Positions 8 to 26,958 of a stretch of 48,842 nt of DNA are shown one piece after another. The notes beneath the pieces were generated by a model. That model saw only the letters and a program-made list of their open reading frames with translations, searched no databases and had not been told where the DNA came from. The stretch is taken from positions 1 to 48,842 of the forward strand of contig DYMH01000006.1 in assembly GCA_020721645.1 (NCBI GenBank), in the 5' to 3' direction. The translations under genes and the position numbers were made by a program. Within the stretch, counting starts at the first letter, position 1. Each line of letters begins with the position of its first letter. The stretch is from Draconibacterium orientale (lineage in GTDB: Bacteria > Bacteroidota > Bacteroidia > Bacteroidales > JAADGE01).

Positions 8-202
8 TCAGTGTTTTCTGCAAAAATAAATATTATTTATGTAATTAAGTCTAAGGATATTTTCTTTGTTTGGAGGTATAAAATAGTATAAATCAATCTG
101 AATGCCGAGTTGTGCCAAATGTTTTACCAAATTGTATGAATGCTTTTGCATTCCTCCAATACTCAAAGGAAAGATACCGTCAGTTAGGAAAGAGAGTTTC
201 AT
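8..202 (-). pseudogene. Truncated 5' fragment of a GT4 glycosyltransferase (gene-start stub)
   Basis: MKLSFLTDGIFPLSIGGMQKHSYNLVKHLA resembles a Bacteroidota GT4 N-terminus (P..GG.Q.H), but the ORF stops at 64 aa. Confidence 0.65.
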
Positions 203-240
203 TATTTGTATTTAGAGAATTGAACATTTATGCCTATATA

Positions 241-327
241 AAATATCTCTTAACCAAACTATTACAGATGTTTTATGATAGCCGAGCCGATGAATCCGGC
301 ACCGCCGGTGATGAGGATTTTTTTCAT
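241..327 (-). repeat. NAD-dependent epimerase/dehydratase 5' stub, copy 1
   Basis: Hand translation MKKILITGGAGFIGSAIIKHL**FG*EIF (Rossmann TGGAGFIGS) with in-frame stops; homologous to 1629-1724, 2924-3019 and 4421-4481. Confidence 0.9.
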
Positions 328-521
328 GTGTTTATATTTTATTTTGGCTACATGGAAGTCCACATTTAGCGGGCTTTGCAGCGTATTTTTACTTTTATCG
401 AATAATCATGCCGTTACTCATTTTTTTTATTATTTTTTGTGTTCGTGAGGGCTTCGCCGTTTTGTGATTTGCCAAAATCATGGACGTTTCATATTGTTTT
501 TGGTTACAAAATTTGAAATAA

Positions 522-1238
522 TTATTGGTTATAATCAACTTGGGCGTTTTCGATAAGGATATTTGTTTTTGACAGGGAGTTATCTGTGCCGATAATAAAA
601 TCATTTGCAATGGTTTTGATGCAATTTTGCAGATAATTAAAATCTTGTGTTTCGGTAAACCATGACACGCGCTCAAAAAGTTCAGTCGGGAAGTTGTTTA
701 TTCTTTGTTCGACATCAATTTCGTTAATCATTGCTTTTTCTTTGGCCGAAAAGAAAATGTCGGACCAATTGAACTTGTAGTTTAACGAAATATGTATGAT
801 ATCAAAAATATCCTTGGGTTCATCCCGGTTGAGGATTGCAGTTAATTTATTTGAAAGAATATTTAACGGTGTATCTATTTTTCCGAAATAGACTTCATTT
901 AAATTGCCGGCATGGTAATTAACGTCATTTACAAATTCGAGTTTTAAAAAAGTGTCGTTTTCTCGGATATAAAAGCGAGAATATCCTTCATAAATCAAGG
1001 TATTTTGTTTTTCTACCGGAAAGTTTTTGTATAATTTCTCCGAAAAATGTTCTATCAGTTGCTTATAATCGTTTCTGTTATTGACAAAAAAATCAAGGTC
1101 TTCACTGTATCGGTGATTGAGATAATATCGACCCAAAGCCGTTTCGCCGGTGAGGTAAAAGGGCATGTCGGCGGTTTTCCAAAATTTCAAAAACTTATCT
1201 TGCAGCAGGTATAATTTCTTGTAATCGTGTTTTAACAT
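522..1238 (-). CDS. AbiEii/AbiGii-family nucleotidyltransferase toxin
   Basis: LTGETAL...HRYSEDLDF, NKLTA...R.EPKDIFDI motifs; overlaps the upstream small ORF. Confidence 0.85.
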   Translation of the reverse strand: MLKHDYKKLYLLQDKFLKFWKTADMPFYLTGETALGRYYLNHRYSEDLDFFVNNRNDYKQLIEHFSEKLYKNFPVEKQNTLIYEGYSRFYIRENDTFLKLEFVNDVNYHAGNLNEVYFGKIDTPLNILSNKLTAILNRDEPKDIFDIIHISLNYKFNWSDIFFSAKEKAMINEIDVEQRINNFPTELFERVSWFTETQDFNYLQNCIKTIANDFIIGTDNSLSKTNILIENAQVDYNQ

Positions 1239-1497
1239 AAGAATATTTTTCCTTTAATGAATCTGTTCTTAATTTGCTTAGGAGAGTATCATTCAAAAGA
1301 TTTTTTATGGTTTCTGTATCAAATATTTTAAGTATTGTAAACCAAGGGAGAGATTCCAACATCTTTCGGAAAAGTGCTTTGAGGTCGTAATGCCCGGCAT
1401 GGTCTGTTTCTCCTTTAATTAGTTTATCAATTTCTTCGGGTGTGATGTCGTAATCCCACATCAGGAGGCGGTAGATCTCTTCTTTTTGCTTATCCAT
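1195..1497 (-). CDS. Putative antitoxin of the AbiEii-family toxin
   Basis: About 100 aa with an LMWDY motif, overlapping the toxin start; ATG at 1497 preferred because a TAnnTTTG box lies at 1516-1523. Confidence 0.7.
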   Translation of the reverse strand: MDKQKEEIYRLLMWDYDITPEEIDKLIKGETDHAGHYDLKALFRKMLESLPWFTILKIFDTETIKNLLNDTLLSKLRTDSLKEKYSYVKTRLQEIIPAAR

Positions 1498-1515
1498 CGT
1501 ATTTCTGTTTATATG

Positions 1516-1523
1516 CAAATATA
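1516..1523 (-). promoter_or_regulatory. Bacteroidota sigma-A -7 box (TATATTTG)
   Basis: Matches TAnnTTTG about 20 nt upstream of the antitoxin ATG. Confidence 0.55.
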
Positions 1524-1577
1524 CCTATTTTTGGAAATAGAATAATGCAAAAATGGCAATAATAATTGATGGATCAT

Positions 1578-1619
1578 TAATATTTCGTAACTAAACTCTT
1601 ATAAATGTTTTATAACTTC
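1578..1619 (-). repeat. Degenerate partial epimerase stub (EVIKHL*EFSYEIL)
   Basis: tatttcgtaactaaactcttataaatgttt aligns with tatttcgtaaccaaactcttgcagatgttt at about 2936-2965. Confidence 0.65.
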
Positions 1620-1628
1620 CGGCGAATA

Positions 1629-1724: not shown

Positions 1725-1728
1725 ACTG

Positions 1729-2877
1729 TTATATAAAAAGTGTTACTTTAAATTCTTCGCCGAATTCTTCAAATAAGACTGTTTTATGTCTTGACAGGGC
1801 TTCGGAGTAAACCATGGGTAATCCTCTTCCCAACTTGTCGATAAAATTGAGGTTTTCCATAAATTTTACGATGACCGGATTTACGGCATAAGATACGCCG
1901 TATTTCAGTTTATCGGGCGAAACGGTATTGGGCAATTTTCCGGGGCTGATGACTTCCAATCGGTTTTGAAAAAGGAATACTCTTATTTTTGAGCCGAAAA
2001 TTGAGTAATTTCTGTGGCAACTGGCATTTACAATAAGTTCTCTGAAAACTTTGTCAGGATATAGGTTTTCTTTGTTCACACGCTTGTTTCCGATAATGTC
2101 GGACGATTGCATTATGTTGTTCTTGATGATTGCTGTTGTCGTGTTTATTTGATAATCAAGATTCCCTTCAATGTTTTGCTTATCTATCAGTTCCGAATTT
2201 ATTTCGTTGCCCGCAAAATGGGCAAATGAAACGGATGAATTCAGCAAAAATTTTTGTGGATTGATTCCGAATATCAGCAGTCCGGCGACTGTTAAATTGC
2301 CTTCTGCTGATAAAATATCTGTATTTTGCAGTAAAACAGTTTTTTCATCTTCCGTCAGAATGTCGAAATTTAGATTGTAAGCGGAGAAATATGACGAAAG
2401 TTTTTGAAAGTTAAGATTTTTAACCGTGCTGTGGTCAACGGCTGTGGCATCGAAATGATAAACCCCGCTTTGTTGAAACAATCGCATGAGTTCATTGATG
2501 CTTGCCGTGCGGTTGGTTGAGCCGACACGGATATAAAATTTTGAATCATTTGCCTGATACGGTTTGTCTTTTCCTTTTGGTATTTCAACGATACCGATGG
2601 TTTTATTTTCGATTTCGATTTTTTGATATTTTATTTCTGCGGGGGGATTCACGTTGTTTCGGGCAATATTCATGCACCATTCTTCGTAGTTTTTTGACCC
2701 GGGAAGTCCCGAAATATCTCCGTTATCCTCAACGCCGATAAGTATTACGCCACCCGAAAGATTTGAAAATGCCACAATTTCTTTTGCCAAGGATTCGGGT
2801 TTTACATCGGCACTTTTAAATTCCAAAGATGAATTTTCGGATTGTTTGATCAGATCGTAGATTTGGTTTGTGTTCAC
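1729..2877 (-). CDS. AlbA_2 (Schlafen-like) domain plus HATPase_c_4 protein
   Basis: ENSSLEFKS...IVAFSN..GG.ILIGVED N-terminus; RELIVNA..HRNY...LEVISPG and GRG C-terminal motifs. Confidence 0.85.
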   Translation of the reverse strand: MNTNQIYDLIKQSENSSLEFKSADVKPESLAKEIVAFSNLSGGVILIGVEDNGDISGLPGSKNYEEWCMNIARNNVNPPAEIKYQKIEIENKTIGIVEIPKGKDKPYQANDSKFYIRVGSTNRTASINELMRLFQQSGVYHFDATAVDHSTVKNLNFQKLSSYFSAYNLNFDILTEDEKTVLLQNTDILSAEGNLTVAGLLIFGINPQKFLLNSSVSFAHFAGNEINSELIDKQNIEGNLDYQINTTTAIIKNNIMQSSDIIGNKRVNKENLYPDKVFRELIVNASCHRNYSIFGSKIRVFLFQNRLEVISPGKLPNTVSPDKLKYGVSYAVNPVIVKFMENLNFIDKLGRGLPMVYSEALSRHKTVLFEEFGEEFKVTLFI

Positions 2878-2923
2878 TTCTGTTTTTTGTTATTATTCGG
2901 TAAAATTATAAAAATAAACAATA

Positions 2924-3019
2924 TCAATTGCACAATATTTCGTAACCAAACTCTTGCAGATGTTTAATCACTGCCGAACCGATAAAGCCGGCTCCGCCGG
3001 TGATGATAACTTTTTGCAT
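2924..3019 (-). repeat. Epimerase 5' stub, copy 3 (open 31-codon mini-ORF)
   Basis: MQKVIITGGAGFIGSAVIKHLQEFGYEILCN*; ATG lies 5 nt after the stop of 3025-4314. Confidence 0.92.
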
Positions 3020-3024
3020 GCGTA

Positions 3025-4314
3025 TTAATAATTTTTGTTTATTTGAATCAAAAAATCACTCAGTTTCCATGCCTGAATGTGTTTTATACCGCCTTTTTCA
3101 TTAAAAATAAAATCATCCAAACTTACAATTATTTTCGGATAATTATCATGTATTGCCTCCAATGAGGAGTATTCTCTGTTTATTGTTATCTCTTCGGACA
3201 TTAGGTAAGCAACTTGAACGTATATTGTTTGGGTGTTTTTAACTGCAACAAAATCAACTTCTTTATTGCGAAGATATCCGACGTAAACATTAAAGCCGGC
3301 TTGGAGTAGTTGCAGGTAAACGATATTTTCCAATTTATAGCCTATGCCATAAGCAAAGCCGGAATACAAATAATTGTGATACGCCAAATCGTTGATATAA
3401 TATTTGTATGTTCCGGCAAGGGTTTCTTTTCCGTAAATATTATATTTTTCGACTTGATAAATAAGAAAACTGCTTTTCAAATAATTGATATAATTTGCAA
3501 GGGTTTCGTAATTTGTTCGCCTGTTTTTACTTTTAAAATAGTTTACAATATTATTGATTGATAACGGATTAGATGCATTGTTGATAAGAAAAGAAAAAAT
3601 ATCTTCCAATAATTTTGCATCTTTAATTTGGTAGCGTTGAATAATATCGCGAAGGAGTATCGTATCTTTAACCGCTGAAATGTAATGCCTTTTGGTTTCT
3701 TCGTTAGGCAGGTTAAACAATTCGGGCAAGCCTCCCGTGTTCAAATATTGTAAAAAACTTTGCTTCGAATTTTCAAGTTTTAAGAAAGAAATGTATTCGT
3801 TGTATGAAAAAGGGAAAATTTGAAATTGCACATATCGACCCGATAAATATGTAGATAACTCTCCGGACAACAGTTCAGAATTCGATCCGGTTATGAAAAT
3901 TTCAAACTCGCGTGTGTAATCCTGCGAATATGAATTGATTGTTTTTTCCCACGAAGTAACAGTCTGTATTTCATCAAAAAAAAGGTAAATTTTCCCTTCG
4001 GGTTTGATTTCGGAAATATACATTTCGACTAACTGCGATAAATCCGTATGCGATTGAATGAAGTCAAAATCTGTAAATTCTTTGTTGATGTATAAAATAT
4101 TATGAGGAGCTGTACCTTTGCCAATCAGGCTTAGGATAATTTGCCTCATCAAATAGCTTTTACCGGTTCTGCGCTGTCCGACAAGCACTTTAATGAGTTT
4201 GTTTGATATAAAATCGCCAATTTTAAGCAAATATTCTTTCCTGAGAAATCCTGCGTCCGGATTTCTTTTATTCCACAGATTGTATTTTTGAAGAATCGCA
4301 ATTTTATCAGACAC
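3025..4314 (-). CDS. AAA_14 ATPase with DUF4143 (PD-(D/E)XK-like) C-terminus
   Basis: Walker A GQRRTGKS, Walker B FFDEIQ, ITGSNS, LSGR, GGLP, LEN.V, EVDFV; TAATTTTG box at 4330-4337. Confidence 0.9.
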   Translation of the reverse strand: MSDKIAILQKYNLWNKRNPDAGFLRKEYLLKIGDFISNKLIKVLVGQRRTGKSYLMRQIILSLIGKGTAPHNILYINKEFTDFDFIQSHTDLSQLVEMYISEIKPEGKIYLFFDEIQTVTSWEKTINSYSQDYTREFEIFITGSNSELLSGELSTYLSGRYVQFQIFPFSYNEYISFLKLENSKQSFLQYLNTGGLPELFNLPNEETKRHYISAVKDTILLRDIIQRYQIKDAKLLEDIFSFLINNASNPLSINNIVNYFKSKNRRTNYETLANYINYLKSSFLIYQVEKYNIYGKETLAGTYKYYINDLAYHNYLYSGFAYGIGYKLENIVYLQLLQAGFNVYVGYLRNKEVDFVAVKNTQTIYVQVAYLMSEEITINREYSSLEAIHDNYPKIIVSLDDFIFNEKGGIKHIQAWKLSDFLIQINKNY

Positions 4315-4484: not shown

Positions 4485-4838
4485 CTATAATCTGAGAATA
4501 TACGGTTGGATATAGGATTGATTATCATGAGATTCAATCAGATTTTTATTGATGATGTAACTTTTTTCGATTTCCTTATCCTTAGAAAACTCAGTTATTG
4601 CTCTTATTTTGTTGTGATTTTTGAAGTCTTTATATTTCACTTCTACGGGAATTAACCTATTATTATTATAGTTTGAAATTATAAAATCAATTTCAACAGC
4701 GTCTTTTGTTTTTTAATAAAATATTTGATTTTGCTTACGGTTTTGTAATAATTGCAGATAGACGAAATTTTCGAAAATTTGTCCGTTATCAACTCTTATC
4801 GAGATGTCGTTGAAACTGTTGTAGATAATGTTTCGCAA
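4485..4838 (-). pseudogene. C-terminal remnant of an AAA_14/DUF4143 ATPase (absent from the ORF track)
   Basis: Hand translation LRNIIYNSF...NGQIFENFVYLQL...FY*KTKDAVEIDFII...IPVEVKY...QPYILRL*, one internal stop. Confidence 0.8.
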
Positions 4839-4905: not shown

Positions 4906-5205
4906 ATGCAAACACAATTGACATTGAATATTGATAATCAAGCAGCCGAACTTGCAAATTATTATGCAAAAGAAAAAGGTGTATCCATAAACGAACTTTT
5001 TGAGAATTACATTCGTTTAATTGTTCTGAACGAGCAACTGTACAAATTGGGAACAGCCGAAATAAGCTCAATTTTTCTAAAATACAAACAAAATTTTGGA
5101 CTTAAAAAAACAAATTGGAAAGAACTTGATGAACATTTAAATCCCATAAGACATGGTTTGCCTGTTGATTTTAAATTTGACAGAGATATAGCAAATGAAA
5201 GATAA
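4906..5205 (+). CDS. Antitoxin (DUF6364 / RHH-like)
   Basis: MQTQLTLNID...A..YAKEKGVS..ELFENY; ends FKFDRDIANER and overlaps the PIN gene. Confidence 0.75.
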   Translation: MQTQLTLNIDNQAAELANYYAKEKGVSINELFENYIRLIVLNEQLYKLGTAEISSIFLKYKQNFGLKKTNWKELDEHLNPIRHGLPVDFKFDRDIANER

Positions 5206-5602
5206 TGTATTTATTGATACAAATATTTTGGTTTATTTCGCAACTGATAAAACCGAAAAACGAGATATAATATTAACTAAACTTGCTGAATGTGAGTATA
5301 GTTACATTTCAATTCAGGTTTTAAACGAATTCAATAATAGTTGTTTCAAAAAATCTTTATTGAAACCAGATGAAATTGAATTTGCATTAAACGAATATAC
5401 AAAAATGTTCAATGTTGTTATACTGAATATCGCAACGATTATTGATGCATTGCGATTAAAACAAAAATACGGCTATTCGTATTACGACAGTTTGATAATC
5501 TCAACAGCATTGCAAAATGATTGTAAAATACTTTATTCGGAAGATATGCAACATACACAGAAAATTGATGATAAATTGACAATTCTAAATCCATTCAAAT
5601 AA
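5195..5602 (+). CDS. PIN-domain (VapC-like) toxin
   Basis: FIDTNILVY, QVLNEF, YYDSLII, LYSEDMQH acidic motifs. Confidence 0.92.
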   Translation: MKDNVFIDTNILVYFATDKTEKRDIILTKLAECEYSYISIQVLNEFNNSCFKKSLLKPDEIEFALNEYTKMFNVVILNIATIIDALRLKQKYGYSYYDSLIISTALQNDCKILYSEDMQHTQKIDDKLTILNPFK

Positions 5603-5806: not shown

Positions 5807-5819
5807 AATTCGATAATTT

Positions 5820-6173
5820 TTACAAAATTGTTAAAAATATCGAGATATTATTTACAGAAATGTAAAAATTATCGGTTTGTTCGCAAGATACTTTGTTTGC
5901 GGAAAAGCTGATAACGAACGAGGTTGTAAGAGTAGGATGAGATGAAATGACGTAAGGAAACTGCCCAATATCGTTAAAATACTGTTTTGCAGGAGGTAAA
6001 GTTATTTTTCGTAATATTTTTTGTAATCGTTCATACTTAGAGAGTATTGATTTAAAGCGTATTTTAGAAATTATTTCGGGAGTTATAATTCTGAAATCGG
6101 AATAATTTTCACTATTTAATTGGATATTCTTATTTTCCGAAGCTTTTGGGCTGAAAGAATGCCGGTATAACAA
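5820..6173 (-). other. Short ORF or gene fragment of unknown origin
   Basis: 117-codon open frame abutting the GT2 stop, no recognisable motif; may be another truncated gene start. Confidence 0.25.
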
Positions 6174-7038: not shown

Positions 7039-7948
7039 AATGCCTAAAATTTTTTGATTTCAGAAAGCCGACAAAGCGTTGGAATTTTACCCTTCGCTTA
7101 TCGGAAAAGATTGAAATAATTGCGGTAAAAAGCAGACCAAAGAAAAACAATGCATTGTATAAAACCAAATCTTTTTTTTGCTTAAATTTTCCAAAGAAAT
7201 AGCGCATGCCGAAAGAATTGTCTAAATCTAAATACATTCTAACGACCAAGTTTGCCGTACCTGTTCCGCCTTTGGATTGATTGTGAATAACCGTAGCTGT
7301 CGGAGTTTGGATAATACGTTTGCTTTCTGTTACAATAGATTTGCATAAATCGACATCAGATACATAAATAAAATAGGTTTCGTCGAGTTTTCTATTGTTT
7401 TCAAACAAAATCGCGGCACCGGCAGGTTGTTCAACGGGCTGATTTTCATTGAAATCCATTCCGAAACATGTGTATTTTCGATAAGATTCAAATTTGTTCC
7501 AATACTTTTTCGGTACGAAACTTTCGACAAACAAAGCAAAAGGTTTTGGAAATGTGCGTGTATAATTTTGAATCGAACCGTCCGGATTTAACAGAACGGG
7601 TGCAACTGCTCCGATTTGTTCGGAACTTTCGAAGGCGGAAACGAGATTTTGTATCGTGTTTTCGGTTATCGCGGCATCGGGGTTAAGTAAAAAAATGTAT
7701 TTTCCATTTGCAATTTCAATGCCTTGATTATTTGCTTTTGTGAAACCCTGATTTTTGTTGTTCAAAATCAATTTCAACTTTTCTATATGTTTGTTCAAAA
7801 GTTCCTGTGTGCCGTCTTTGGAATTGTTGTCCACAATAATGTGCTCGCAGTGTTGTCCGTATTTTGCAACAGATTCTATGTTTTTTTCTATCAAATCGGC
7901 ACAGTTGTATGTTACTGTGATTACGGAAACGGATATATTAGTGTTCAT
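7028..7948 (-). CDS. GT2 glycosyltransferase (WbbL-like)
   Basis: SVITVTYN, VDNNSKDGT, GFTKANNQG, LLNPDA. Confidence 0.92.
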   Translation of the reverse strand: MNTNISVSVITVTYNCADLIEKNIESVAKYGQHCEHIIVDNNSKDGTQELLNKHIEKLKLILNNKNQGFTKANNQGIEIANGKYIFLLNPDAAITENTIQNLVSAFESSEQIGAVAPVLLNPDGSIQNYTRTFPKPFALFVESFVPKKYWNKFESYRKYTCFGMDFNENQPVEQPAGAAILFENNRKLDETYFIYVSDVDLCKSIVTESKRIIQTPTATVIHNQSKGGTGTANLVVRMYLDLDNSFGMRYFFGKFKQKKDLVLYNALFFFGLLFTAIISIFSDKRRVKFQRFVGFLKSKNFRHFEL

Positions 7949-10627: not shown

Positions 10628-10632
10628 CTGTA

Positions 10633-18704: not shown

Positions 18705-19939
18705 TCTACGGGTATTTTAAAATAACCATTTTCTCTATCGCCTTCCTTAAATTCTTCTTGTGTTAAATTAATAATGTTTAGATTTATTTTGTCGCTCGGT
18801 AAATCTAATATTTTAATTTTAGGAATATCTAATGCCAAACCGATTTTATATAAATTTGCAATTAATAGATTACCTGGTATTTTAATAGTCCAAGTTTTAA
18901 TTCCTATAAAATCCAACTGTCTTCTGTTTATAAATATTAAATTATCGTACTTATCTTGTATTGAAAAATTCAAACGTGCGTTTTCTTGATAATAGTCGTT
19001 TCTAAGGGTTATGTTTACAAAAATCTCTTGCTCTGCGAAATATTCAATCACAACATTCTTATCTTTATCTTTCAGTTCAACTTTAATTATTTGTGTCGCT
19101 TTACTCTCATCTTGTTTGTAGAATATAGTTGAAATATTTTGGTCAGTTGAGTTTGTATTTAAATATTTAGTTAAAGTTTCGTCTATTCCCCCTTCAAAAA
19201 TCAGTTTTCCGTTTTGCAAAACCACGCCCTTGTTACACAACGCCTTTATACTCCCCATATTATGACTCACAAACAACACAGTCCTCCCCCCTTCCCTCGA
19301 AACATCCTGCATTTTTCCGATGGCTTTTTTCTGAAATTCGGCGTCGCCCACTGCAAGCACTTCGTCCACCACCAAGATTTCGGGTTCTAAATGGGCAGCA
19401 ACGGCAAAGGCGAGGCGAACGTACATTCCGCTGCTGTAACGTTTTACGGGTGTGTCCACGTATTTGGCTACGCCGGCAAAGTCGATAATTTCGTCGAATT
19501 TGGATTTTATTTCTCGTTTAGTCATGCCGAGGATTGCCCCGTTAAGGAAAATATTTTCTCTACCTGTCAATTCGGGGTGAAAGCCGGTGCCTACTTCGAG
19601 CAAACTTGCAATACGACCGTTTACTTTTATGCTGCCGGTGGTTGGTCCGGTAACGCGGGAGAGTATTTTGAGCAAAGTTGATTTTCCTGCTCCGTTTTTG
19701 CCAATGATTCCGAGTATTTCGCCTTTTTTTACCTCTAAGTTAATGTCTTTGAGAGCCCAAACCAAGTCGCCGTCCACAGTATCGAGGCGGTTTGTTTGCC
19801 CGATTTTAAGTGTCGGATCTTCCTTGCCGCGAATTTTTGCAAACCATCGGTTGAGGTCGTGGCTGAGTGTTCCGGTACCTATTTGCCCGAGGCGGTACTG
19901 TTTGGAAAGGTTTTCTATTTTAATGGCAAGGTCGGACAA
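18692..19939 (-). CDS. wzt: Polysaccharide ABC transporter ATP-binding protein with Wzt C-terminal domain
   Basis: GKNGAGKST, GFHPELTGREN, YSSGM, VDEVLAVGD, VSH; TTG start. Confidence 0.95.
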   Translation of the reverse strand: MSDLAIKIENLSKQYRLGQIGTGTLSHDLNRWFAKIRGKEDPTLKIGQTNRLDTVDGDLVWALKDINLEVKKGEILGIIGKNGAGKSTLLKILSRVTGPTTGSIKVNGRIASLLEVGTGFHPELTGRENIFLNGAILGMTKREIKSKFDEIIDFAGVAKYVDTPVKRYSSGMYVRLAFAVAAHLEPEILVVDEVLAVGDAEFQKKAIGKMQDVSREGGRTVLFVSHNMGSIKALCNKGVVLQNGKLIFEGGIDETLTKYLNTNSTDQNISTIFYKQDESKATQIIKVELKDKDKNVVIEYFAEQEIFVNITLRNDYYQENARLNFSIQDKYDNLIFINRRQLDFIGIKTWTIKIPGNLLIANLYKIGLALDIPKIKILDLPSDKINLNIINLTQEEFKEGDRENGYFKIPVEWEI

Positions 19940-19973
19940 AATAATTATGAATTATGAGTTATGGATGGTGGGG

Positions 19974-19981
19974 CAAAAATA
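19974..19981 (-). promoter_or_regulatory. TAnnTTTG promoter box upstream of wzt (repeated at 21010, 23841 and 26941)
   Basis: TATTTTTG about 30-35 nt upstream of TTG in all four copies. Confidence 0.6.
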
Positions 19982-20040
19982 GTAAAAATTTTGTTTATTG
20001 TCGTTTCTGCGATGAAGTCTTATGGTAAAATTGTGTCTGT

Positions 20041-20457
20041 TTAATGGATGAACGGATTTATTATTTGTAATCTGTTCTCAATAATTTGTTGATGTTGCAT
20101 GTCTTCTGTGTATAGGATTGAGCAATTATTTTGTAATGCAGCAGAAATAATTAAACTATCCCAATAAGAAAAACCGTATTTTTCTTTTATTTTTAAACAC
20201 AGTTTTATGTCAGAATAATTTAACGGAGTAACGTTAAATAATTTAGATATTTCAATGATATTGTTCTTAATATTTTTGTGTTCAATTTTATTTTTAAACA
20301 GAACTGAATAAAATTCGTTGATAACTTGTACACTTACAAAAAATGTGTTTCCTAAGTTAAGAGAAAACAGCTCTTTAATCTTTTTTTGTTTGTCATTATT
20401 CTGTAGAATGTATCCATAAACAAGAATATTTGTATCAATAAAAATATTATCTTTCAT
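20041..20457 (-). CDS. PIN-domain (VapC-like) toxin
   Basis: FIDTNILVY, QVINEF, WDSLII, LYTEDMQH; homolog of 5195-5602. Confidence 0.92.
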   Translation of the reverse strand: MKDNIFIDTNILVYGYILQNNDKQKKIKELFSLNLGNTFFVSVQVINEFYSVLFKNKIEHKNIKNNIIEISKLFNVTPLNYSDIKLCLKIKEKYGFSYWDSLIISAALQNNCSILYTEDMQHQQIIENRLQIINPFIH

Positions 20458-20701
20458 AAAGTTCGTCCCGAGAATAAGTTATAAAATTGATACATTGAAT
20501 GGGATTGTTGATAAAATTAGGTATTTTTTTTAATGGTTTTTCGTTTTTGGATTTTTCGGACACGGAAGTAATTTTAATGTCATATTTAAAAATAATGAAT
20601 TCCAATAAATTAGTAAATTCCTTTTCAGCATCCTTATCTAATTTGGAAAAGAAAAGTTGCGGATTTTCTTTCAGCATGTTGATATCAATAGTTTTATTCA
20701 T
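20447..20701 (-). CDS. Putative antitoxin of the PIN toxin
   Basis: 84 aa ending SRDELYER, overlaps PIN start; TAAATTTG box at 20718-20725. Confidence 0.75.
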   Translation of the reverse strand: MNKTIDINMLKENPQLFFSKLDKDAEKEFTNLLEFIIFKYDIKITSVSEKSKNEKPLKKIPNFINNPIQCINFITYSRDELYER

Positions 20702-20782
20702 GGTCGGTTTTTTAATGCAAATTTACGACGAAAATTTAAATAAAAAACATCATAATAATTTTTCCCTTTTTAAAAACGGTGT

Positions 20783-21031
20783 CTTTGAGAGTTCGTACAT
20801 ATTCGCCGTCCCCGGTATCGAGACGGTTGGTTTGTCCGATTTTAAGTGTCGGGTCTTCCTTGCCGCGAATTTTTGCAAACCATCGGTTGAGGTCGTGGCT
20901 GAGTGTTCCGGTACCTATTTGCCCGAGGCGGTACTGTTTGGAAAGGTTTTCTATTTTAATGGCAAGGTCGGACAAAATAATTATGAATTATGAGTTATGG
21001 ATGGTGGGGCAAAAATAGTAAAAATTTTGTT
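20783..21031 (-). repeat. wzt 5' stub with promoter and UTR, copy 2
   Basis: Near-identical to about 19745-19995; first 54 aa identical, similarity ends after LKD. Confidence 0.95.
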
Positions 21032-21104
21032 TTGAGCGAGGGTTTTATAAGAAACTGTTTTCTTTTCATTAAACAGAGAATATTCTCCTTTTGTCTGCAA
21101 AATT

Positions 21105-21296
21105 GTGTTTGTCGGGTTCTGAAACCCACTAAGCAAGTTGGTCGGCATGTTTTTCGATGATTTCGCAGCTGCCATCGGTGCTGCTGCCGTCGATGATGAT
21201 GTACTCGAAAGTGGTAAAAGTTTGCGATACAACGCTTTCTATGGTCTTTTGCAAGCCGGCGGCGTTGTTGAGGTTTATTGTTGAGAGTTTCGGCAT
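21105..21296 (-). repeat. GT2 (KLSIITVN) 5' stub, long version
   Basis: MPKLSTINLNNAAGLQKTIESVVSQTFTTFEYIIIDGSSTDGSCEIIEKHADQLA*WVSEPDK; ATG lies 5 nt after the toxin stop. Confidence 0.92.
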
Positions 21297-21301
21297 TAAA
21301 T

Positions 21302-21922
21302 TCATTTATTTTTAATAAAATCTGTAAGCGTATTTTCAATAAATATTTTTACTTCGTTCCAATCTGTCGGAATAAGCATATCCGGTTGTTCGTCTTCATC
21401 TGCATCTTTAAAATATGTGAGACTTCTTAAAACTAAAAAAATAGAACCTTCGGGATATTTTTGCATATAAAAATCTAATATTTCTTTTAGATTATATCGT
21501 TTCAATAAAAAGTATAAATCTATAAAATCTTTTTTTGTTCCTCTGCCTGTAATTGCGGCAATTTTCATTGCAGCAATATCTTTTATACCGGCGAGTAATA
21601 AATTATCTTCAGTAATTGCATTTTCTAACCATGTATAATGGTAATTAACAAAATCTACTTTAATATTATTAACAGAAAAGATATTAATATTTGTTGAATT
21701 TTTAAGAACAGTTATTTTTCCTACCTTTTCTAATTCTTTGGAAAAGGTAATAAAATCATTTTCAATCAGTCCAAAAAAATCTAAATCTATTGATTTTCTG
21801 TGTCCTATTTGTAGAGCCAATGCTGTTCCGCCTACAAGTCTTAATTTAGAAAACTCTGTAATGCTCTGTATTTTTTTTAATATATCCAGTGTGTCCTGTT
21901 CAATTGTTTTGTAGTATAGCAT
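21302..21922 (-). CDS. AbiEii-family nucleotidyltransferase toxin
   Basis: LVGGTALALQIGHRKSIDLDF, AAMK..AI..RG.KKDF.D. Confidence 0.92.
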   Translation of the reverse strand: MLYYKTIEQDTLDILKKIQSITEFSKLRLVGGTALALQIGHRKSIDLDFFGLIENDFITFSKELEKVGKITVLKNSTNINIFSVNNIKVDFVNYHYTWLENAITEDNLLLAGIKDIAAMKIAAITGRGTKKDFIDLYFLLKRYNLKEILDFYMQKYPEGSIFLVLRSLTYFKDADEDEQPDMLIPTDWNEVKIFIENTLTDFIKNK

Positions 21923-22182
21923 AAGAATTTTTCTTTTGGTATTTTAGATAATAATGAAATAAAAGTTATGGATTTTTCATCCAAATCTCTGGCATTCATG
22001 GCGATTTTCGCTATTTCATCTATTCCGTAGTAATTGTATATAATATCCCAATCGTTTATTAAGCCGTAATCAAGAACATTTGTAATAATCGTTTTCTTAC
22101 TTCTTTCAAAGTCGAGATTATTTCTATTTACGTCCCAAAACAGATGTTTTGAAAAATTGTTTATATCAAATTCTTTGCTCAT
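21877..22182 (-). CDS. DUF6922-like antitoxin
   Basis: HLFWD motif; ATG at 22182 gives 101 aa, collinear with 14969-15274. Confidence 0.8.
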   Translation of the reverse strand: MSKEFDINNFSKHLFWDVNRNNLDFERSKKTIITNVLDYGLINDWDIIYNYYGIDEIAKIAMNARDLDEKSITFISLLSKIPKEKFLCYTTKQLNRTHWIY

Positions 22183-22206
22183 AAAATTGATTTTATTTGT
22201 AATTTC

Positions 22207-22303
22207 CTGTAAAAATTTGTATAGCAATGATTTCAATGGTTTTTATCAGTCCTTCGGCATTGTTAAGGTTTACGGTGATTATTGAGAGTTTTGGGGTATG
22301 AAT
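22207..22303 (-). repeat. GT2 5' stub (start codon degraded to ATT)
   Basis: IHTPKLSIITVNLNNAEGLIKTIEIIAIQIFTG. Confidence 0.9.
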
Positions 22304-22310: not shown

Positions 22311-22922
22311 TTAAAAATTTAGTGCAGTTTCGGTTAAGAAGTTTTTGATTTCGTTTTCAGTGGGTTTTTCTTTCAAAAATTCAACAGGTTCCGAATGGTC
22401 CATATCTTCAAAATAACAAAGTTGCGCTCGGAAAAGTTTTTCGGAAAACAAGTCGCCGTAAATAGCACTAGCTTTTTCAGATATTTGATTTACAGTATGA
22501 TAACTTTTAAGTATGTAGTATAAATCAACATAATCTTTCCATTTCGATCTTCTGCCTAATGCGTAAGATTTCATGGCTGCCAATGTTAATAAGTCGGGCA
22601 ATTTGAACACGTCTTCGTATTTGCAGGGCGTATCTATGTGGAATGGGTATTGGAAAAAAGTAAGTTTTACTTTGTTCAGTATCAGGTTTAATTGTTCGGA
22701 TACACGACGTGTAACTGTGTGGTTGTATCCGGACTCTGAAATTTTTGAGATAATCTTCGGGATTTTGAGGTCTGTTTTTTTGAACATGTCAAAATCAATG
22801 GATTGTCGGTGTCCGATATGCAAGGCAATTGCCGTGCCGCCGACTAAGTAAAATTCGCGTTTAAAGCCGGACATCAGCGGAAGTAATTGTACTTGTTTTT
22901 GATTAAATATCTCGCTATGCAT
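22311..22922 (-). CDS. AbiEii-family nucleotidyltransferase toxin
   Basis: LVGGTAIALHIGHRQSIDFD, AAMK.YALGRR.KWKDYVD. Confidence 0.92.
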   Translation of the reverse strand: MHSEIFNQKQVQLLPLMSGFKREFYLVGGTAIALHIGHRQSIDFDMFKKTDLKIPKIISKISESGYNHTVTRRVSEQLNLILNKVKLTFFQYPFHIDTPCKYEDVFKLPDLLTLAAMKSYALGRRSKWKDYVDLYYILKSYHTVNQISEKASAIYGDLFSEKLFRAQLCYFEDMDHSEPVEFLKEKPTENEIKNFLTETALNF

Positions 22923-23187
22923 GGTTTTTAAAATAGAGTGAAAAAAGGTGATGTATTTCGGGATAAAAATTTCCTATTTTTCTATCCTGCATTGAAAAAA
23001 ATACCGATGCTACGGTTTTTAATCCTAAGATGTGAAATAATTTTCTTATTGTTGCCATTTCGCCGTAATTCAAAATAAATTCCACCAAAACTTCGTGGCT
23101 GATATTTTGTTTTTCCGCTTCGGGAGTATACCAAAATAAATCGGCGTTTTCGGCAATAAATTGTTTTATTTCGGGGGTGTTTTGCAT
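22915..23187 (-). CDS. Putative antitoxin (LFWY motif)
   Basis: ATG at 23187 (MQNTPEIK); overlaps the toxin start; TATTTTTG box at 23232-23239. Confidence 0.75.
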   Translation of the reverse strand: MQNTPEIKQFIAENADLFWYTPEAEKQNISHEVLVEFILNYGEMATIRKLFHILGLKTVASVFFSMQDRKIGNFYPEIHHLFSLYFKNHA

Positions 23188-23260
23188 TGATTTTATTATT
23201 ATTGCGAGCTTGGGTACTCGAAAGTATCCCGCAAAAATACGAAATTTTATGTTTTTTTTC

Positions 23261-23666
23261 TTAATCAAAACTCTTTATTTGGATTAAAATATCGCGAAAT
23301 GTTTCTCCGAATTTGATGTTGTTGGTTTTATAATCTGAAATTTCGGATTTTGGTTTGTAGTTTTCGAGAATTTTCGCAAGTTGGACGGTATTTTCGGGTT
23401 CAAAGAAAACCACATTTCGGATGATTTGTTCGCGATGCACCCGAATGTCCGATAAAATAAGCGATTGATTCATCGCTTTTACATCTTCAACCACCGTACT
23501 CCAACCTTCAAAAAGAGACGGTTGAATGATGGCTTGCGAATGTTTCATGAGTGCCAATTGGTCGATTCTGTCAATAAATCCGAGAAAACGAACATTGTCT
23601 TGAATATTATTTTGTAAAACATAGTTTTGCAATTCGTTGAAAAATTCAGGGTTTCTGTAATCGGAT
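23261..23666 (-). pseudogene. 3' fragment of a GT4 glycosyltransferase, copy B
   Basis: DYRNP...FLGFI...QPSLFEGWSTVVED...SDI.VHRE; no N-terminal domain, fused to a wzt stub. Confidence 0.85.
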
Positions 23667-23667
23667 T

Positions 23668-23862
23668 ATTTGCCCGATCTTAAGTGTCGGGTCTTCCTTG
23701 CTGCGAATTTTTGCAAACCATCGGTTGAGGTCGTGGCTGAGTGTTCCGGTATCTATTTGCCCGAGGCGGTACTGCTTGGAAAGATTCTCAATTTTAATGG
23801 CAAGGTCGGACAAAATAATTATGAATTATGAATGGTGGGGCAAAAATAGTAAAAATTTTGTT
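23668..23862 (-). repeat. wzt 5' stub, copy 3
   Basis: TTG at 23813; identity to the wzt start ends at PTLKIGQ. Confidence 0.95.
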
Positions 23863-23902
23863 TTGCAGGGATTTTATTTTTGTTTTTACATCTTCCCATT
23901 AT

Positions 23903-24170
23903 TAATGCGAATCAAGAGTCGCATTATTAAAAGTTGAATATGTTTCATAGTGTGAAGTATGAATTGCCGGCGGAGTGATTTCTTTTATTTATATCGGAGT
24001 CTCCTCCGGCTAATTTCTTGATATTTATCGAATTTGTAATTTAGTATACCGGAAAAAACAATTGTTTCTAAAACTAATTCCATCCGCCGTTAGCTTGTTC
24101 AGCTTTGCAATACACCGGCATAAATGCCGGAGATAGTCAATACAATGATTTTAACTCTTGATTCGCATTA
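23903..24170. mobile_element. MITE-like non-coding element with 17-bp terminal inverted repeats
   Basis: taatgcgaatcaagagt (23903-23919) and actcttgattcgcatta (24154-24170) form a perfect IR; internal hairpins; no ORF. Confidence 0.6.
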
Positions 24171-24206
24171 TTAATCTTTCATTATCATGCGTATTGGTTC
24201 GGAAAA

Positions 24207-24302
24207 CGAAAAGATTTGTGCAAGCACGCTGTCGATTGTCTTTTTAAGACCCTTGGCATTGTTAAGGTTTACGGTGATTATTGAGAGTTTGGGGTGGTGC
24301 AT
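24207..24302 (-). repeat. GT2 5' stub
   Basis: MHHPKLSIITVNLNNAKGLKKTIDSVLAQIFS. Confidence 0.92.
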
Positions 24303-24331
24303 TGTTTTATTTGATTCGGAAAATGAGTTCT

Positions 24332-24955
24332 TTATAGTTTATTTTTAAGAACACTATCGCTTATTGTTTTTTTTATCTTATTCCACGTCAATTGAGGGTC
24401 TTTTATCATGACCGGCCAGTCGGCTAAATCAACATCATCAAACCACACCAAACTTTTCAACACGTTAATATCGTTGGTTTGATTGTATTTTGTTTTGTAA
24501 AAACGGATCATTTCCGGTAATTGTATTTGCTGTAAAATATAAAAAATATCAATAAAATCCTTAACTCTTTGTCCGTTAGTGCAAACCGCATTCAATTTCA
24601 TAGCCGATATATCTTGTATCGATAACATTTTTATTTTTTCCGAAACATGCAAATCCGCTATATGTGGATATCGGTGTGCCAAAATATCAACCTGTACATT
24701 GTTTATACTGCCTTTTAATGTATTTGCCGCACTATAAAAGATTTTGAAATTAAAATCGTTTGAAATTTTTTCGAAAATATCTTGAGCATCAAAATTGAAA
24801 TTACAAAACAAATCGATATCAACAGATCTTCTGTGGCCCAGCCGGAGTGCTAATGCAGTTCCGCCTACCAGGTAAAATCCTTCAAGATATGGTTTCTCTT
24901 GTAATTTGATAATTAGGTCAAATGTTAATTGATCGACTGTTTTTTTGAATAGCAT
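24332..24955 (-). CDS. AbiEii-family nucleotidyltransferase toxin
   Basis: LVGGTALALRLGHRRSVDIDLF, SAMKLNA...G.R.KDF.D. Confidence 0.92.
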   Translation of the reverse strand: MLFKKTVDQLTFDLIIKLQEKPYLEGFYLVGGTALALRLGHRRSVDIDLFCNFNFDAQDIFEKISNDFNFKIFYSAANTLKGSINNVQVDILAHRYPHIADLHVSEKIKMLSIQDISAMKLNAVCTNGQRVKDFIDIFYILQQIQLPEMIRFYKTKYNQTNDINVLKSLVWFDDVDLADWPVMIKDPQLTWNKIKKTISDSVLKNKL

Positions 24956-25209
24956 TTGAATTGTTTTTTTGGAATTTTGAAATATAAGGAAAAAAAATTT
25001 AAAGTTTTGTCATCTAAAAAATTCAAACAACAAATCGTATTCATAATCGTTTCTTTTCCGTAAAAATTCATAATCAGCGAAAGTTCATCTGAATTCCCGA
25101 AATTTATCACACGCTCTATAATTAATCGTTGATTTTTTTGGGCATCCATTTTCGAAATATCGATATCCCAAAAATATACAGGGTTTATATGTTGCAATAT
25201 ATTTTCCAT
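24925..25209 (-). CDS. DUF6922-like antitoxin
   Basis: YFWD...LIIERVINFG; overlaps the toxin; TAATTTTG box at 25236-25243. Confidence 0.82.
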   Translation of the reverse strand: MENILQHINPVYFWDIDISKMDAQKNQRLIIERVINFGNSDELSLIMNFYGKETIMNTICCLNFLDDKTLNFFSLYFKIPKKQFKCYSKKQSIN

Positions 25210-25316
25210 TTCCGAATTTTCTTTTTAGCCTTTTACAAAATTAATGCTTTTTGGTGTAATATGAATTTCAGAGCGTTTCTATTTTGCAGAGAATTGTTGT
25301 ATTCCTTTTTCGGAAA

Positions 25317-25401
25317 AGACTAACACCGCGAGCATCGCATTTTTTTGCAATCCTTTGGCATTGTTGAGGCTTACGGTGATTATGGAGAGTTTGGTGGGCA
25401 T
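25317..25401 (-). repeat. GT2 5' stub
   Basis: MPTKLSIITVSLNNAKGLQK; ATG lies 7 nt after the toxin stop. Confidence 0.9.
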
Positions 25402-25408
25402 AAGTAAA

Positions 25409-26010
25409 TTAAAAATTTAGTGCTGTTTCAGTTAGAAACGTTTTGATTTTTTCATCTGATGGCTTTTCGTTTAAGTAAATAACGGGTTCGGAATTGTCTA
25501 TATCTTCGTAAAACGATAATTGTTCTAAAAGCAATTTAGCATTAAAAAAATTTCCGAAAACGATATCTGTATTGTCGATTATTTGATTTAAAGAGAAATG
25601 ATTTTTCAAAATAAAATATAAATCGACATAATCTTTCCATTTTGCTCGTCCGCCGAGAGCATAAGTCATCATGCTTGCTAAATTGAGCAAAGAAGGTAGT
25701 TTTATGATATTATTAAAATCAGTATCGGCCTCAATTTTGTGCGGAAATTGGAAAAAGGTCAATTTGACAGAATTAACAATTAGATGCATTTGGTCAAAAG
25801 CTTCATATATTACACGATAGGTATTATTATAGTATTTTTTATTTGAGTTCTTTTAATTTCGTCATACGAGAACAAATCAAAATCAATTGATGAACGATGT
25901 CCCAGATACAGTGCAATTTCTGTTCCACCGACAAGATAATATTTATTTGAAAATTGGTTGATTAACGGGAGTAATGCTTTTTGTTCTTCAGACAGGATAA
26001 ATATTTGCAT
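25409..26010 (-). pseudogene. Split AbiEii toxin (frameshift near 25810)
   Basis: N-half MQIFILSEEQ...GGTEIAL..GHRSSIDFD (26010-25810) and C-half ...RAKWKDYVD...FLTETALNF are in different frames; paralog of 22311-22922. Confidence 0.88.
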
Positions 26011-26275
26011 GGCGTTTAAAATATAAATTGAAGAAATGAACGGTACTTTTATGGTAATTGACTCTTGAATTACTGACCTGTTTAAAAAATATTTTGGCAA
26101 CAGCATCTATTCCAAGAATTAGAAAAAGTTTTTTTAGTGATAATATTGTTCCGTAATTCAAAATAAATTCCACCAAAACTTCGTGGCTGATATTTTGTTT
26201 TTCCGCTTCGGGAGTATACCAAAATAAGTCCGAATTTTCGGCAATGAATTGTTTTATTTCAGGGGTGTTTTGCAC
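25988..26275 (-). CDS. Putative antitoxin (LFWY motif)
   Basis: First 42 aa nearly identical to 22915-23187; overlaps the toxin pseudogene; GTG start. Confidence 0.7.
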   Translation of the reverse strand: MQNTPEIKQFIAENSDLFWYTPEAEKQNISHEVLVEFILNYGTILSLKKLFLILGIDAVAKIFFKQVSNSRVNYHKSTVHFFNLYFKRHANIYPV

Positions 26276-26365
26276 GGATCCGAATATTTTGCATGGCTTA
26301 TCGGCAAATTATTGTTATGCTTTATGCAAAGATATGAAATTTTCCTTTTACCCCTTATCAAAACC

Positions 26366-26759
26366 CTATATTTGTTCTAAAATATTGCGAAATGTTTCGC
26401 CGAATTTGGTGATGTTGGTTTTATAATCCGAAATTTCGGATTTGGGTTTGTAGTTTTCTAAAATTTGTGCAAGCTGTTTGGCATTTTCAGGCTCAAAGAA
26501 ATCGACATTTCGGTTAATTTGTTCGCGATGCACCCGAATGTCCGATAAAATAAGCGATTGATTCATTGCTTTTGCATCTTCTACAACAGTACTCCAACCT
26601 ACAAAAAGAGACGGCTGAATAATTGCTTGCGAATGTTTCATGAGTGCCAATTGGTCGATTCTGTCAATAAATCTGAGAAAACGAATATTGTCTTGAATAT
26701 TATTTTGTAAAACATAGTTTTGCAATTCGTTGAAAAATTCAGGGTTTCTGTAATCGGAT
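26366..26759 (-). pseudogene. 3' fragment of a GT4 glycosyltransferase, copy A
   Basis: Close duplicate of 23261-23666; LFEGW is changed to LFVGW. Confidence 0.85.
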
Positions 26760-26760
26760 T

Positions 26761-26958
26761 ATTTGCCCGATCTTAAGTGTCGGGTCTTCCTTGCTGCGAA
26801 TTTTTGCAAACCATCGGTTGAGGTCGTGGCTGAGTGTTCCGGTATCTATTTGCCCGAGGCGGTACTGCTTGGAAAGATTCTCTATTTTAATGGCAATGTC
26901 GGACAAAATAATTATGAATTATGAATTATGAATAGTGGGGCAAAAATAGTAAATTTTA
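26761..26958 (-). repeat. wzt 5' stub, copy 4
   Basis: TTG at 26906; same truncation junction as copy 3; three ATTATGA heptamers in the UTR. Confidence 0.95.

Follow-up and report, generated by a model that had tools for sequence, protein, structure and literature searches.

Among described systems, restriction-modification complexes come closest to the locus analysed here: they are found inserted with long target duplications of more than 30 bp, up to ~420 bp, and without mobility genes (Nobusato et al. 2000, via Furuta, Abe & Kobayashi 2010, PMC2853133), and target duplications of 30-420 bp are reported for restriction-modification systems in the parts of two papers on which we draw (PMC2853133; PMC3874152). 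The repeats of such insertions match a single-copy target in the empty-site genome and may overlap gene ends (PMC2853133). Long target duplication occurs mostly in naturally competent species, and a cycle of entry, repeat amplification and release has been proposed (PMC2853133; PMC3874152); in the sections drawn on here, the authors of PMC2853133 document repeat-mediated amplification directly, but offer no direct evidence that the insertions are released or enter again. Here we describe a stretch of 48,842 nucleotides (nt), hereafter the window, which is the whole 48.8-kb contig DYMH01000006.1 of a 285-contig metagenome bin of an uncultured Bacteroidales (Draconibacterium orientale, GCA_020721645.1). 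It contains at least ten toxin-antitoxin and defence cassettes, separated by truncated copies of gene starts that we call stubs. With a probability of roughly 0.6, these cassettes entered by insertion with long target duplication, and the repeats then underwent unequal crossover. A first-pass annotation of the same DNA had seen in it a candidate new system; a wholly new kind of system it is not, since long and variable target duplications without a mobility gene are already described for restriction-modification systems in the part of PMC2853133 considered here. The pattern itself is real, recurrent and statistically strong, and is partly explained by this known but poorly understood phenomenon.

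The left 27.2 kb of the window is a glycan cluster with nearly all genes on the minus strand (Pfam, NCBIfam). It comprises a Wzt-like ABC ATPase, two GT4 and five GT2 glycosyltransferases, a DegT aminotransferase and a GNAT acetyltransferase, and is predicted from this content to be an ABC-transporter-type glycan (O-antigen-like) locus. Using self-BLASTN, tblastn of the 33 called proteins and tblastn of N-terminal queries, we confirmed 13 truncated copies of 5' gene ends. All of them lie on the minus strand, and they stem from four genes (epimerase-type, four; GT2a, five; GT2b, one; wzt, three). About 15 such copies of five genes had been claimed in the first-pass annotation; the remaining gene, a GT4 with an N-terminal piece at the contig end (202-8), appears ambiguous and is not countable as a stub of the same kind, because the end of the piece is a dispersed repeat found at 30 or more contig ends. 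Stubs, ambiguous piece and intact genes are as follows (aa, amino acids; ORF, open reading frame):

331-241, minus strand: epimerase-type stub no. 1 (self-BLASTN; 72% at the aa level to the stub at 3019, E 1e-8)
1724-1625, minus strand: epimerase-type stub no. 2, with an internal stop (88% to 2920-3019 over 101 nt)
3019-2920, minus strand: epimerase-type stub no. 3, a 31-codon ORF (self-BLASTN)
4481-4422, minus strand: epimerase-type stub no. 4 (self-BLASTN, tblastn)
10532-10635, minus strand: GT2b stub, upstream repeat copy, starting 5 nt after the GT2c stop (match 10606-10532, aa 8-32, 60%)
15271-15393, minus strand: GT2a stub, a 40-codon ORF whose stop overlaps the DUF6922 ATG (ATGA) (match 15384-15301, aa 7-34, 82%)
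21108-21305, minus strand: GT2a stub, ORF with an ATG that overlaps the nucleotidyltransferase TGA (four-base ATGA) (match 21293-21108, aa 6-69, 73%)
22208-22303, minus strand: GT2a stub, ATT replacing ATG, with the same stub-to-DUF6922 joint as at 15301 (tblastn; match 22300-22208, aa 4-34, 77%)
24171-24302, minus strand: GT2a stub (tblastn; match 24293-24192, aa 6-39, 71%)
25279-25401, minus strand: GT2a stub (tblastn; match 25392-25342, aa 7-23, 82%)
20736-21032, minus strand: wzt stub C with upstream repeat (self-BLASTN, tblastn; match 20975-20781, aa 1-65, 91%)
23646-23872, minus strand: wzt stub B with upstream repeat (self-BLASTN, tblastn; match 23813-23658, aa 1-52, 90%)
26739-26974, minus strand: wzt stub A with upstream repeat (self-BLASTN, tblastn; match 26906-26751, aa 1-52, 88%)
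1-202, minus strand: GT4 N-terminal piece (202-8; translation), its last ~15 codons inside a dispersed ~54-nt repeat (1-54), at the contig end
7938-8875, minus strand: intact GT2b (ORF 7938-8867) with the downstream copy of an 83-nt direct repeat (8793-8875) (Pfam)
14076-14867, minus strand: intact GT2a, parent of five stubs (Pfam Glycos_transf_2)
18692-19996, minus strand: intact wzt (gene 18692-19939) with ~57 nt of upstream repeat including TATTTTTG (Pfam ABC_tran; NCBIfam Wzt/TagH-like below cut-off)

The four epimerase/dehydratase-type stubs share the start MxKxxITGGAGFIGSAxIKH and are 81-91% identical to each other. Their intact parent is present nowhere in the 285-contig genome, and the family genomes yielded only short matches, at contig ends or in ordinary rfbB. 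Divergence is marked among the GT2a stubs, as the first-pass annotation had remarked: over 87 aligned nt they are 54-79% identical to each other and 56-79% to the intact GT2a, the value of 56% belonging to the stub at 25401, which matches over its first ~43 nt only (88%). The GT2b direct repeat (8793-8875 versus 10553-10635, self-BLASTN) is 76% identical over 83 nt, and the wzt repeats, which include ~57 nt upstream of the start codon, are 92-95% identical, with TATTTTTG at one common position in all four. The ends of the stubs are variable (aa 23, 34, 39 and 69 for GT2a, 52 and 65 for wzt, 31 and 50 in a relative), and those of wzt stop before the Walker A motif, i.e., not within a conserved motif. 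An unbiased fragment scan of long ORFs with 38 sources returned 18 N-terminal, 5 C-terminal and 3 internal fragments (9, 5 and 3 in relatives alone): gene starts are favoured as fragments, though not exclusively. Selection alone may account for this bias, because a duplication is harmless only if it extends across the edge of a gene, and it is only on the 5' side that a cassette lacking a promoter can acquire one.

The cassettes, whose identities come from profile matches, comprise five AbiEii nucleotidyltransferase pairs (two with a DUF6922 partner and three with a partner of no known family, one of the latter having a broken nucleotidyltransferase), one orphan DUF6922 gene, two PIN pairs, two AAA_14/DUF4143 ATPases plus a remnant, and one Schlafen/AlbA_2-HATPase_c_4 gene. 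The four intact nucleotidyltransferase genes match Pfam PF08843 (AbiEii, DUF1814) with E 3e-15 to 4e-11, and PADLOC AbiEii as well. No AbiEi antitoxin is encoded upstream of them, the upstream genes being DUF6922 or without a match in Pfam, NCBIfam and PADLOC. The cassettes are:

522-1518, minus strand: small partner of no known family (1195-1518) and AbiEii nucleotidyltransferase (522-1238) (Pfam AbiEii E 4.4e-11; PADLOC AbiEii; flanking repeat 87 nt, 83%)
1729-2877, minus strand: Schlafen/AlbA_2 and HATPase_c_4 protein, stop 4 nt before a stub ATG (Pfam; weak PADLOC matches to pAgo-associated and PDC-S50; flanking repeat 101 nt, 88%)
3025-4314, minus strand: AAA_14/DUF4143 ATPase, stop 5 nt before a stub ATG (Pfam; PADLOC candidate defence family PDC-S01, E 7.6e-139)
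4485-4640, minus strand: C-terminal remnant of another AAA_14/DUF4143 ATPase, stop 3 nt before a stub ATG (BLASTP to residues 350-406 of the ATPase at 9123-10412, E 6e-5)
4906-5602, plus strand: DUF6364-PIN toxin-antitoxin pair, on the opposite strand and with no flanking repeat (Pfam; best flank match 17.5 bits)
9123-10412, minus strand: second AAA_14/DUF4143 ATPase (Pfam; PDC-S01, E 2.5e-109)
14969-15274, minus strand: orphan DUF6922 gene with no nucleotidyltransferase after it (Pfam DUF6922, E 2.6e-21)
20041-20701, minus strand: unit C cassette, small partner and PIN toxin, flanked by a 253-nt repeat, 94.9% (Pfam PIN)
21302-22236, minus strand: unit B cassette, DUF6922 and AbiEii nucleotidyltransferase (Pfam)
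22311-23268, minus strand: unit B cassette, partner of no known family and AbiEii nucleotidyltransferase (Pfam; 79% aa homologue in relative G004)
24332-25209, minus strand: unit A cassette, DUF6922 and AbiEii nucleotidyltransferase (Pfam)
25409-26275, minus strand: unit A cassette, partner of no known family and AbiEii nucleotidyltransferase in two ORF pieces, with a frame break (tblastn, 49-52% to 22311-22922)

Three complete cases of stub, cassette and intact gene, already recognised in the first-pass annotation, are borne out (stub/AAA_14 ATPase/GT2b; stub/DUF6922/GT2a; wzt stub/antitoxin-PIN/wzt), and so are all six gaps of 3-7 nt that it listed between a cassette stop and a stub start codon, the start codon at 22303 being ATT. 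It had overlooked the AAA_14 C-terminal remnant, two GT4 C-terminal fragments and the ~57-nt upstream part of the wzt repeats. One stub-to-DUF6922 junction occurs twice in the window: between 15177-15384 and 22085-22291, the stub, the joint and the first ~33 DUF6922 codons are 77% identical, and the remaining DUF6922 protein ~44%, which points to a recombination breakpoint within the antitoxin-like DUF6922 gene.

The flanking repeats of the window are 43-253 nt long and 71-95% identical. Direct repeats of at least 39 bits between the 400-nt flanks were found for 5/7 window units and 12/23 units in relatives, versus 8/450 random ORFs (at least 200 aa, on other contigs of the window's genome); the 95th percentile of 177 cross-locus control pairs is 27.4 bits. 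Among 34 unique DUF6922-AbiEii modules (five short-flank rows and five duplicate rows excluded), 10 reach at least 35 bits and 12 lie above the control 95th percentile of 28.8 bits. Cassettes are therefore bracketed by direct repeats far more often than ordinary genes. Several of the eight background ORFs belong to tandem paralogue families (TolB-like, BMC), and one, which shows the same architecture as the cassettes, is itself a YhcG/DUF1016 PDDEXK nuclease gene (G000 contig C130, 20874-21908, locus L062), situated outside a glycan locus and flanked by a 170-nt repeat (86%) that corresponds to positions -48 to +122 of the downstream lipoprotein-like gene.

Related genomes, the closest of which belong to the same family only, show the same arrangement with their own material. 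DUF6922 is present in 14/25 family genomes, the window's included, and the glycan loci of relatives carry the same cassette types next to stubs of their own: an AAA_14 ATPase is bracketed by GT2a-type stubs in G004, a partner-PIN cassette lies between two wzt stubs in G007, and another stands directly ahead of a wzt start in G003. The wzt repeats of the window are highly alike although PIN cassettes adjoin wzt starts in two other genera, which counts among the signs of recombination between the repeats. Duplication is also seen at the 3' end of a gene: in G004 (contig C34, 3673-7606, locus L011), a DegT-like gene is followed by a Schlafen-type gene, a DegT 3' fragment (aa 317-370, 44%) and a second Schlafen-type gene, and the end of DegT and the beginning of the cassette both fall inside a 78-nt repeat (95%). 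A 1561-nt contig in the bin of another genus (G005 contig C33, locus L055) is 97.8% identical to window 4554-2993 and consists of stub, AAA_14 ATPase and stub; it reflects either a recent transfer or a binning error. The DUF6922-AbiEii family is bracketed by the GT2a start in the window and elsewhere by the leader and start of cysC, by the decayed start of a deacetylase-like gene, and by another gene's leader. Such unrelated targets around one cassette family indicate that the repeats originate in the target and do not travel with the cassette. At cysC, a filled and an empty site can be compared directly, a polymorphism of the kind that the first-pass annotation had proposed looking for: in a sister genus, G014 joins the left flank directly to the cysC upstream region, and G015 and G019 carry there the DUF6922-AbiEii module with ~79 nt of promoter-like region and start codon on both sides, from a TAtaTTTG box through ATG+5, the DUF6922 ORF of G019 starting with the duplicated cysC ATG-CAA-AA.

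The 20-27 kb part of the window reads, in the order of transcription, RecO, unit A, unit B, unit C and main locus, an organisation of two parallel units of ~3.1 kb each and a third, shorter one that the first-pass annotation had missed. Units A and B both consist of wzt(1-52) fused to a GT4 C-terminus, partner and AbiEii, a GT2a stub, DUF6922 and AbiEii, and another GT2a stub; unit C consists of wzt(1-65), partner and PIN. The motif GT2a stub - DUF6922 - GT2a recurs in the main locus. The two GT4 fragments are:

23261-23632, minus strand: GT4 C-terminal fragment of unit B (Pfam Glycos_transf_1, profile 63-154 of 172; 87% aa to 26357-26725)
26366-26725, minus strand: GT4 C-terminal fragment of unit A (tblastn)

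Identity between units A and B is 87% over 839-853 nt, a stretch that takes in the shared wzt/GT4 deletion joint, and only 67-71% farther on; their DUF6922-AbiEii pairs share 33-35% protein identity. Given this uneven identity, the shared deletion joint and the recurrence of the motif in the main locus, the array is a mosaic of unit duplication, deletions and part exchange, not a simple series of clean insertions. The first-pass annotation had itself offered an alternative in this direction, namely successive locus replacements whose old copies eroded except for the addictive toxin-antitoxin genes. In a broader form, the stubs would be the wreckage of entire or partial glycan-locus copies, piled up by repeated replacement or duplication and worn down by deletions to little besides the addictive toxin-antitoxin genes and scraps of adjoining genes. 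Decay and in-situ duplication did also shape the array: the wzt(1-52)-GT4 fusion of units A and B is a typical deletion joint, the units follow an order (wzt ... GT2a stub - DUF6922 - GT2a) like that of the main locus, a relative (G006) has an intact order of GT4 then GT2a with wzt upstream, and decay is visible in a split and a lost nucleotidyltransferase, the ATPase remnant and the stop within a stub. As an account of the whole, wreckage is nevertheless quite improbable, since random deletion predicts equal numbers of 5' and 3' remnants, against 13 5' stubs versus two 3' fragments of biosynthetic genes in the window. It also leaves unexplained the single cassettes with matching repeats at unrelated sites (cysC, the YhcG nuclease) and the four epimerase starts unaccompanied by other epimerase remains, and duplications would still be required to make the copies.

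A tandem array in a fragmented metagenome bin might also be a chimeric assembly of strain variants, the refutation that the first-pass annotation had named for its own proposal; unitigs do break at the repeated stubs, and variants exist in other samples. We consider this scarcely credible. Logan unitigs with 0 differences to the window cover every stub-cassette joint in runs X1 and X3, which are two samples from two studies (X1 may be the source sample), and the cases at 8867-10635 and 14722-19847 (stub, cassette and gene) each lie inside single unitigs. The unitig of every unit opens within a truncated wzt and closes in the repeat upstream of wzt, so that two wzt starts must be present in any genome with such a unit; these unitigs do not establish in which order units A, B and C stand. 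Word depths of the units, which like contig depths are not copy numbers, resemble those of the flanks (7.8-11.7 versus 9.8-11.3 in X1; 15.9-23.5 versus 20.9-21.1 in X3), and similar structures exist in other bins. Contigs of two further runs (X4, X7) join 23259 to 26358, i.e., have one unit where the window has two, and a contig of X4 links position 22256, in stub 22303, directly to 24254, in stub 24302, free of mismatches and with 36 nt in common. The latter is a recombinant between two GT2a stubs, and the repeats thus serve as recombination substrates at the strain level. Ten further joints with sides of 20-25 nt, among them 21254-22257 with the look of an empty DUF6922 site, were not used as evidence, and no inference is drawn from the low or absent near-identical cover of parts of the window in X4 and X7.

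As the first-pass annotation had stated, there is no recombinase nearby: tyrosine recombinases (PF00589) are absent from the window contig and number nine elsewhere in the genome, and serine recombinases (PF00239) are absent from the genome. The 30 window proteins scanned hold no recombinase or transposase domain, transposase families having been searched in these proteins and not genome-wide. No attC-like hairpin recurs at cassette ends among the 25 longest of the 45 inverted repeats in 1-27200, and alignment of the three stub families revealed variable 3' ends and neither an att core nor any other sequence common to the families. An integron was considered and rejected, there being no IntI (PF00589) on the contig and no attC-type inverted repeat at cassette 3' ends. 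Tandem arrays punctuated by repeated gene ends are also the look of accretion at an att site, and the cassettes could be non-autonomous elements, like cis-mobilizable elements (CIMEs), that are moved by recombinases encoded elsewhere, such as the nine tyrosine recombinases on other contigs, the repeats being attL and attR. This is very improbable: five or more target genes within 27 kb would need equally many site specificities, the repeats vary in length and ends, are 71-95% alike rather than near-identical and have neither a common core nor a hairpin, and the 48.8-kb contig encodes no recombinase.

Insertion with long target duplication would proceed as follows. Each cassette is little more than its ORFs, and most would have been inserted at the edge of a resident gene, along with a direct duplication of the target that is long and variable (about 45-250 bp). 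Since the duplication takes in the promoter or leader, the first codons or both, its upstream copy would be left as a dead stub, and its downstream copy would keep the host gene whole. From the stub, transcription and translation could run on into the cassette. Amplification and deletion of units would then follow from unequal crossover between the repeats, gene conversion would keep some repeats alike, and cassettes sharing a conserved gene start could be added or swapped between genomes. Toxins would penalise loss through repeat-to-repeat recombination, and arrays would build up, presumably stabilised by addiction. As for the chemistry of insertion, we infer that no recombinase takes part and that it may be break repair or template switching, or else Campbell-type entry of a circle with target DNA already on it.

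Several observations weigh against this account. About half of the cassettes have no detectable repeat, including window units 4906-5602 and 22311-23268. In relatives, some of the scored repeats connect the leaders or starts of neighbouring cassettes that are paralogous (e.g., the Schlafen pair of L011 and the DUF6922 pair of L027), and at least two of the 12 repeats inspected individually are not target duplications. The cysC polymorphism, seen in three genomes, could as well be a precise loss through the repeats as an insertion. Among the genomes compared, all of which are metagenome bins, none has an empty site for the window's own insertions, so that target duplication is seen directly only for a related module in another genus. 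The serial arrangement of the units is supported by the depths, without proof. The motif TAnnTTTG, which we take to be a promoter consensus and on which no general claim about promoters in stubs is based, stands at one position in all four wzt repeats but is not enriched in the window (95 found versus 76.9 +/- 9.6 expected; 4/100 shuffles reach 95). Finally, the ATG is the exact first position of each of the four epimerase repeats, and the stops of three cassette genes that are unrelated lie 3-7 nt ahead of it; such regular boundaries are not predicted by independent insertions with random ends and favour ready-made units of cassette and stub, or strong selection.

Ready-made units are what the first-pass annotation had proposed, the mobile unit being a cassette with a replacement gene start that inserts by a single Campbell-type crossover in a conserved N-terminal motif and gives an integron-like array. 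The bracketing of cassettes by truncated and full starts and the recombining repeats of that model stand; gene starts as specific att sites do not, in view of the unrelated targets of one family, the variable stub ends and the occurrence of 3' fragments. The model explains better than target duplication does both the epimerase boundaries and the epimerase stubs without a parent in the genome, as if imported with their cassettes. It fits the different cassettes behind one type of stub (four behind the epimerase start, five behind GT2a, and the AAA_14 ATPase between GT2a-type stubs in G004), the twice-occurring stub-to-DUF6922 joint, the 1561-nt contig of another genus and the recombinant joints at stubs in other samples. 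We nonetheless consider it unlikely as the main route. Homologous recombination alone cannot make units for new targets, and a single toxin-antitoxin family has at least four unrelated ones, two of them non-coding leaders; the stub ends vary, outside the conserved motif in the case of wzt; the 1561-nt contig may be a binning error; and over the 87 nt compared, no GT2a stub clearly resembles a foreign orthologue more than it does the resident gene. Crossover may be a secondary route for spreading ready-made units, not their origin.

Beyond the insertions themselves, it is conceivable, if rather doubtful, that in Bacteroidales defence and addiction cassettes without promoters generally use a route that needs no recombinase, going in at start codons with a long duplication of the promoter or gene start. 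The duplicated start would drive expression, spare the host gene and provide a portable homology arm. If true, this would be an integrase-less functional analogue of the integron, held together by toxin addiction, with cassettes stacked, swapped and passed between genomes that have the conserved gene in common.

Other features of the window touch on this array or lie beside it. RecO (27193-27918) comes next after wzt stub A. No ABC-2 permease (Wzm, PF01061) is encoded on the window contig, and six PF01061 matches lie on other contigs of the genome. A 444-aa ORF within the glycan cluster (12745-14079) has no Pfam or NCBIfam match. Two near-palindromes of ~63 nt (5811-5874 and 10425-10487) are 80-81% complementary and unlike each other; the second is located between the GT2b stub and the ATPase start. 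The ~54-nt dispersed repeat at the left contig end (1-54) has 92-100% matches at the ends of at least 30 other contigs and breaks the assembly; contig C64 (3.4 kb), with this repeat at both ends, carries ordinary genes and encodes no transposase. One further insert follows the GT2a stub at 24302 and occupies the tail of unit A:

23897-24172, no strand assigned: insert of ~275 nt resembling a miniature inverted-repeat transposable element, with ~21-nt inverted repeats at its edges (sequence reading; inner parts match at least five other contigs at 84-96%)

Such loci bear on how single defence and toxin-antitoxin genes move without a mobility gene. Our literature search, which did not extend to the supplements of PMC2853133, returned no report of glycan loci in which duplicated gene starts bracket toxin-antitoxin or defence cassettes, nor any of long target duplication with toxin-antitoxin or ATPase cargo; the sole precedent it yielded is that of restriction-modification systems, and 'DUF6922' was not found in the literature searched. 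The locus extends a known phenomenon, on record since 2000 according to the part of PMC2853133 drawn on here, to new cargo, another phylum and the form of an array. Dense arrays can form inside a surface-glycan locus, and the many junctions of different ages are usable to work out the insertion chemistry. Short ORFs that resemble gene starts in such loci are to be regarded as scars, not genes. Glycan loci are often exchanged and may ferry defence genes between lineages.

Integrons hold serial, mostly promoterless cassettes with repeated separators, read one way from an upstream promoter, and the chromosomal integron array of V. cholerae, described by Pandey & Gerdes in 2005, reportedly carries toxin-antitoxin cassettes. 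The window resembles them in its serial one- or two-gene cassettes, many of them toxin-antitoxin pairs, and in its repeated separators; it differs in lacking IntI, attI and attC hairpins, its separators being fragments of host genes with variable ends. For integrative elements or CIMEs to accrete at a gene end, an integrase is required together with a single, specific att core. There, too, a repeated gene end punctuates the array and the intact gene stands at one end, whereas the window has many targets, variable ends and no integrase on its contig. Orphan toxin-immunity modules of rhs and cdiA keep internal or 3' pieces of the toxin gene, lie downstream and are swappable by homologous recombination. 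They are likewise arrays of selfish modules each retaining a short piece of a conserved gene, but the pieces found here are the 5' ends of unrelated housekeeping or biosynthetic genes and lie upstream. The cargo recalls AbiE, a type IV toxin-antitoxin and abortive infection system encoded by a two-gene operon with AbiEii second (Dy et al. 2014, PMC3985639, in the part drawn on here): the second gene is here predicted from Pfam and PADLOC matches to encode an AbiEii-family nucleotidyltransferase, and its partner is DUF6922 or of no known family instead of AbiEi. With restriction-modification insertions, the locus shares direct repeats of more than 30 bp (43-253 nt here), addictive or defence cargo and the lack of a transposase or integrase. 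It differs from them in its cargo (AbiEii, PIN, PDC-S01, Schlafen-type and, on another contig of the genome, a PDDEXK nuclease) and its Bacteroidales host, in its stacked arrays of up to five at one gene start, and in repeats that mostly span promoters or start codons and are mostly old (71-88% alike). As the cargo holds no restriction and modification genes, we regard the locus as a variant of the long-target-duplication phenomenon rather than a member of the published set.

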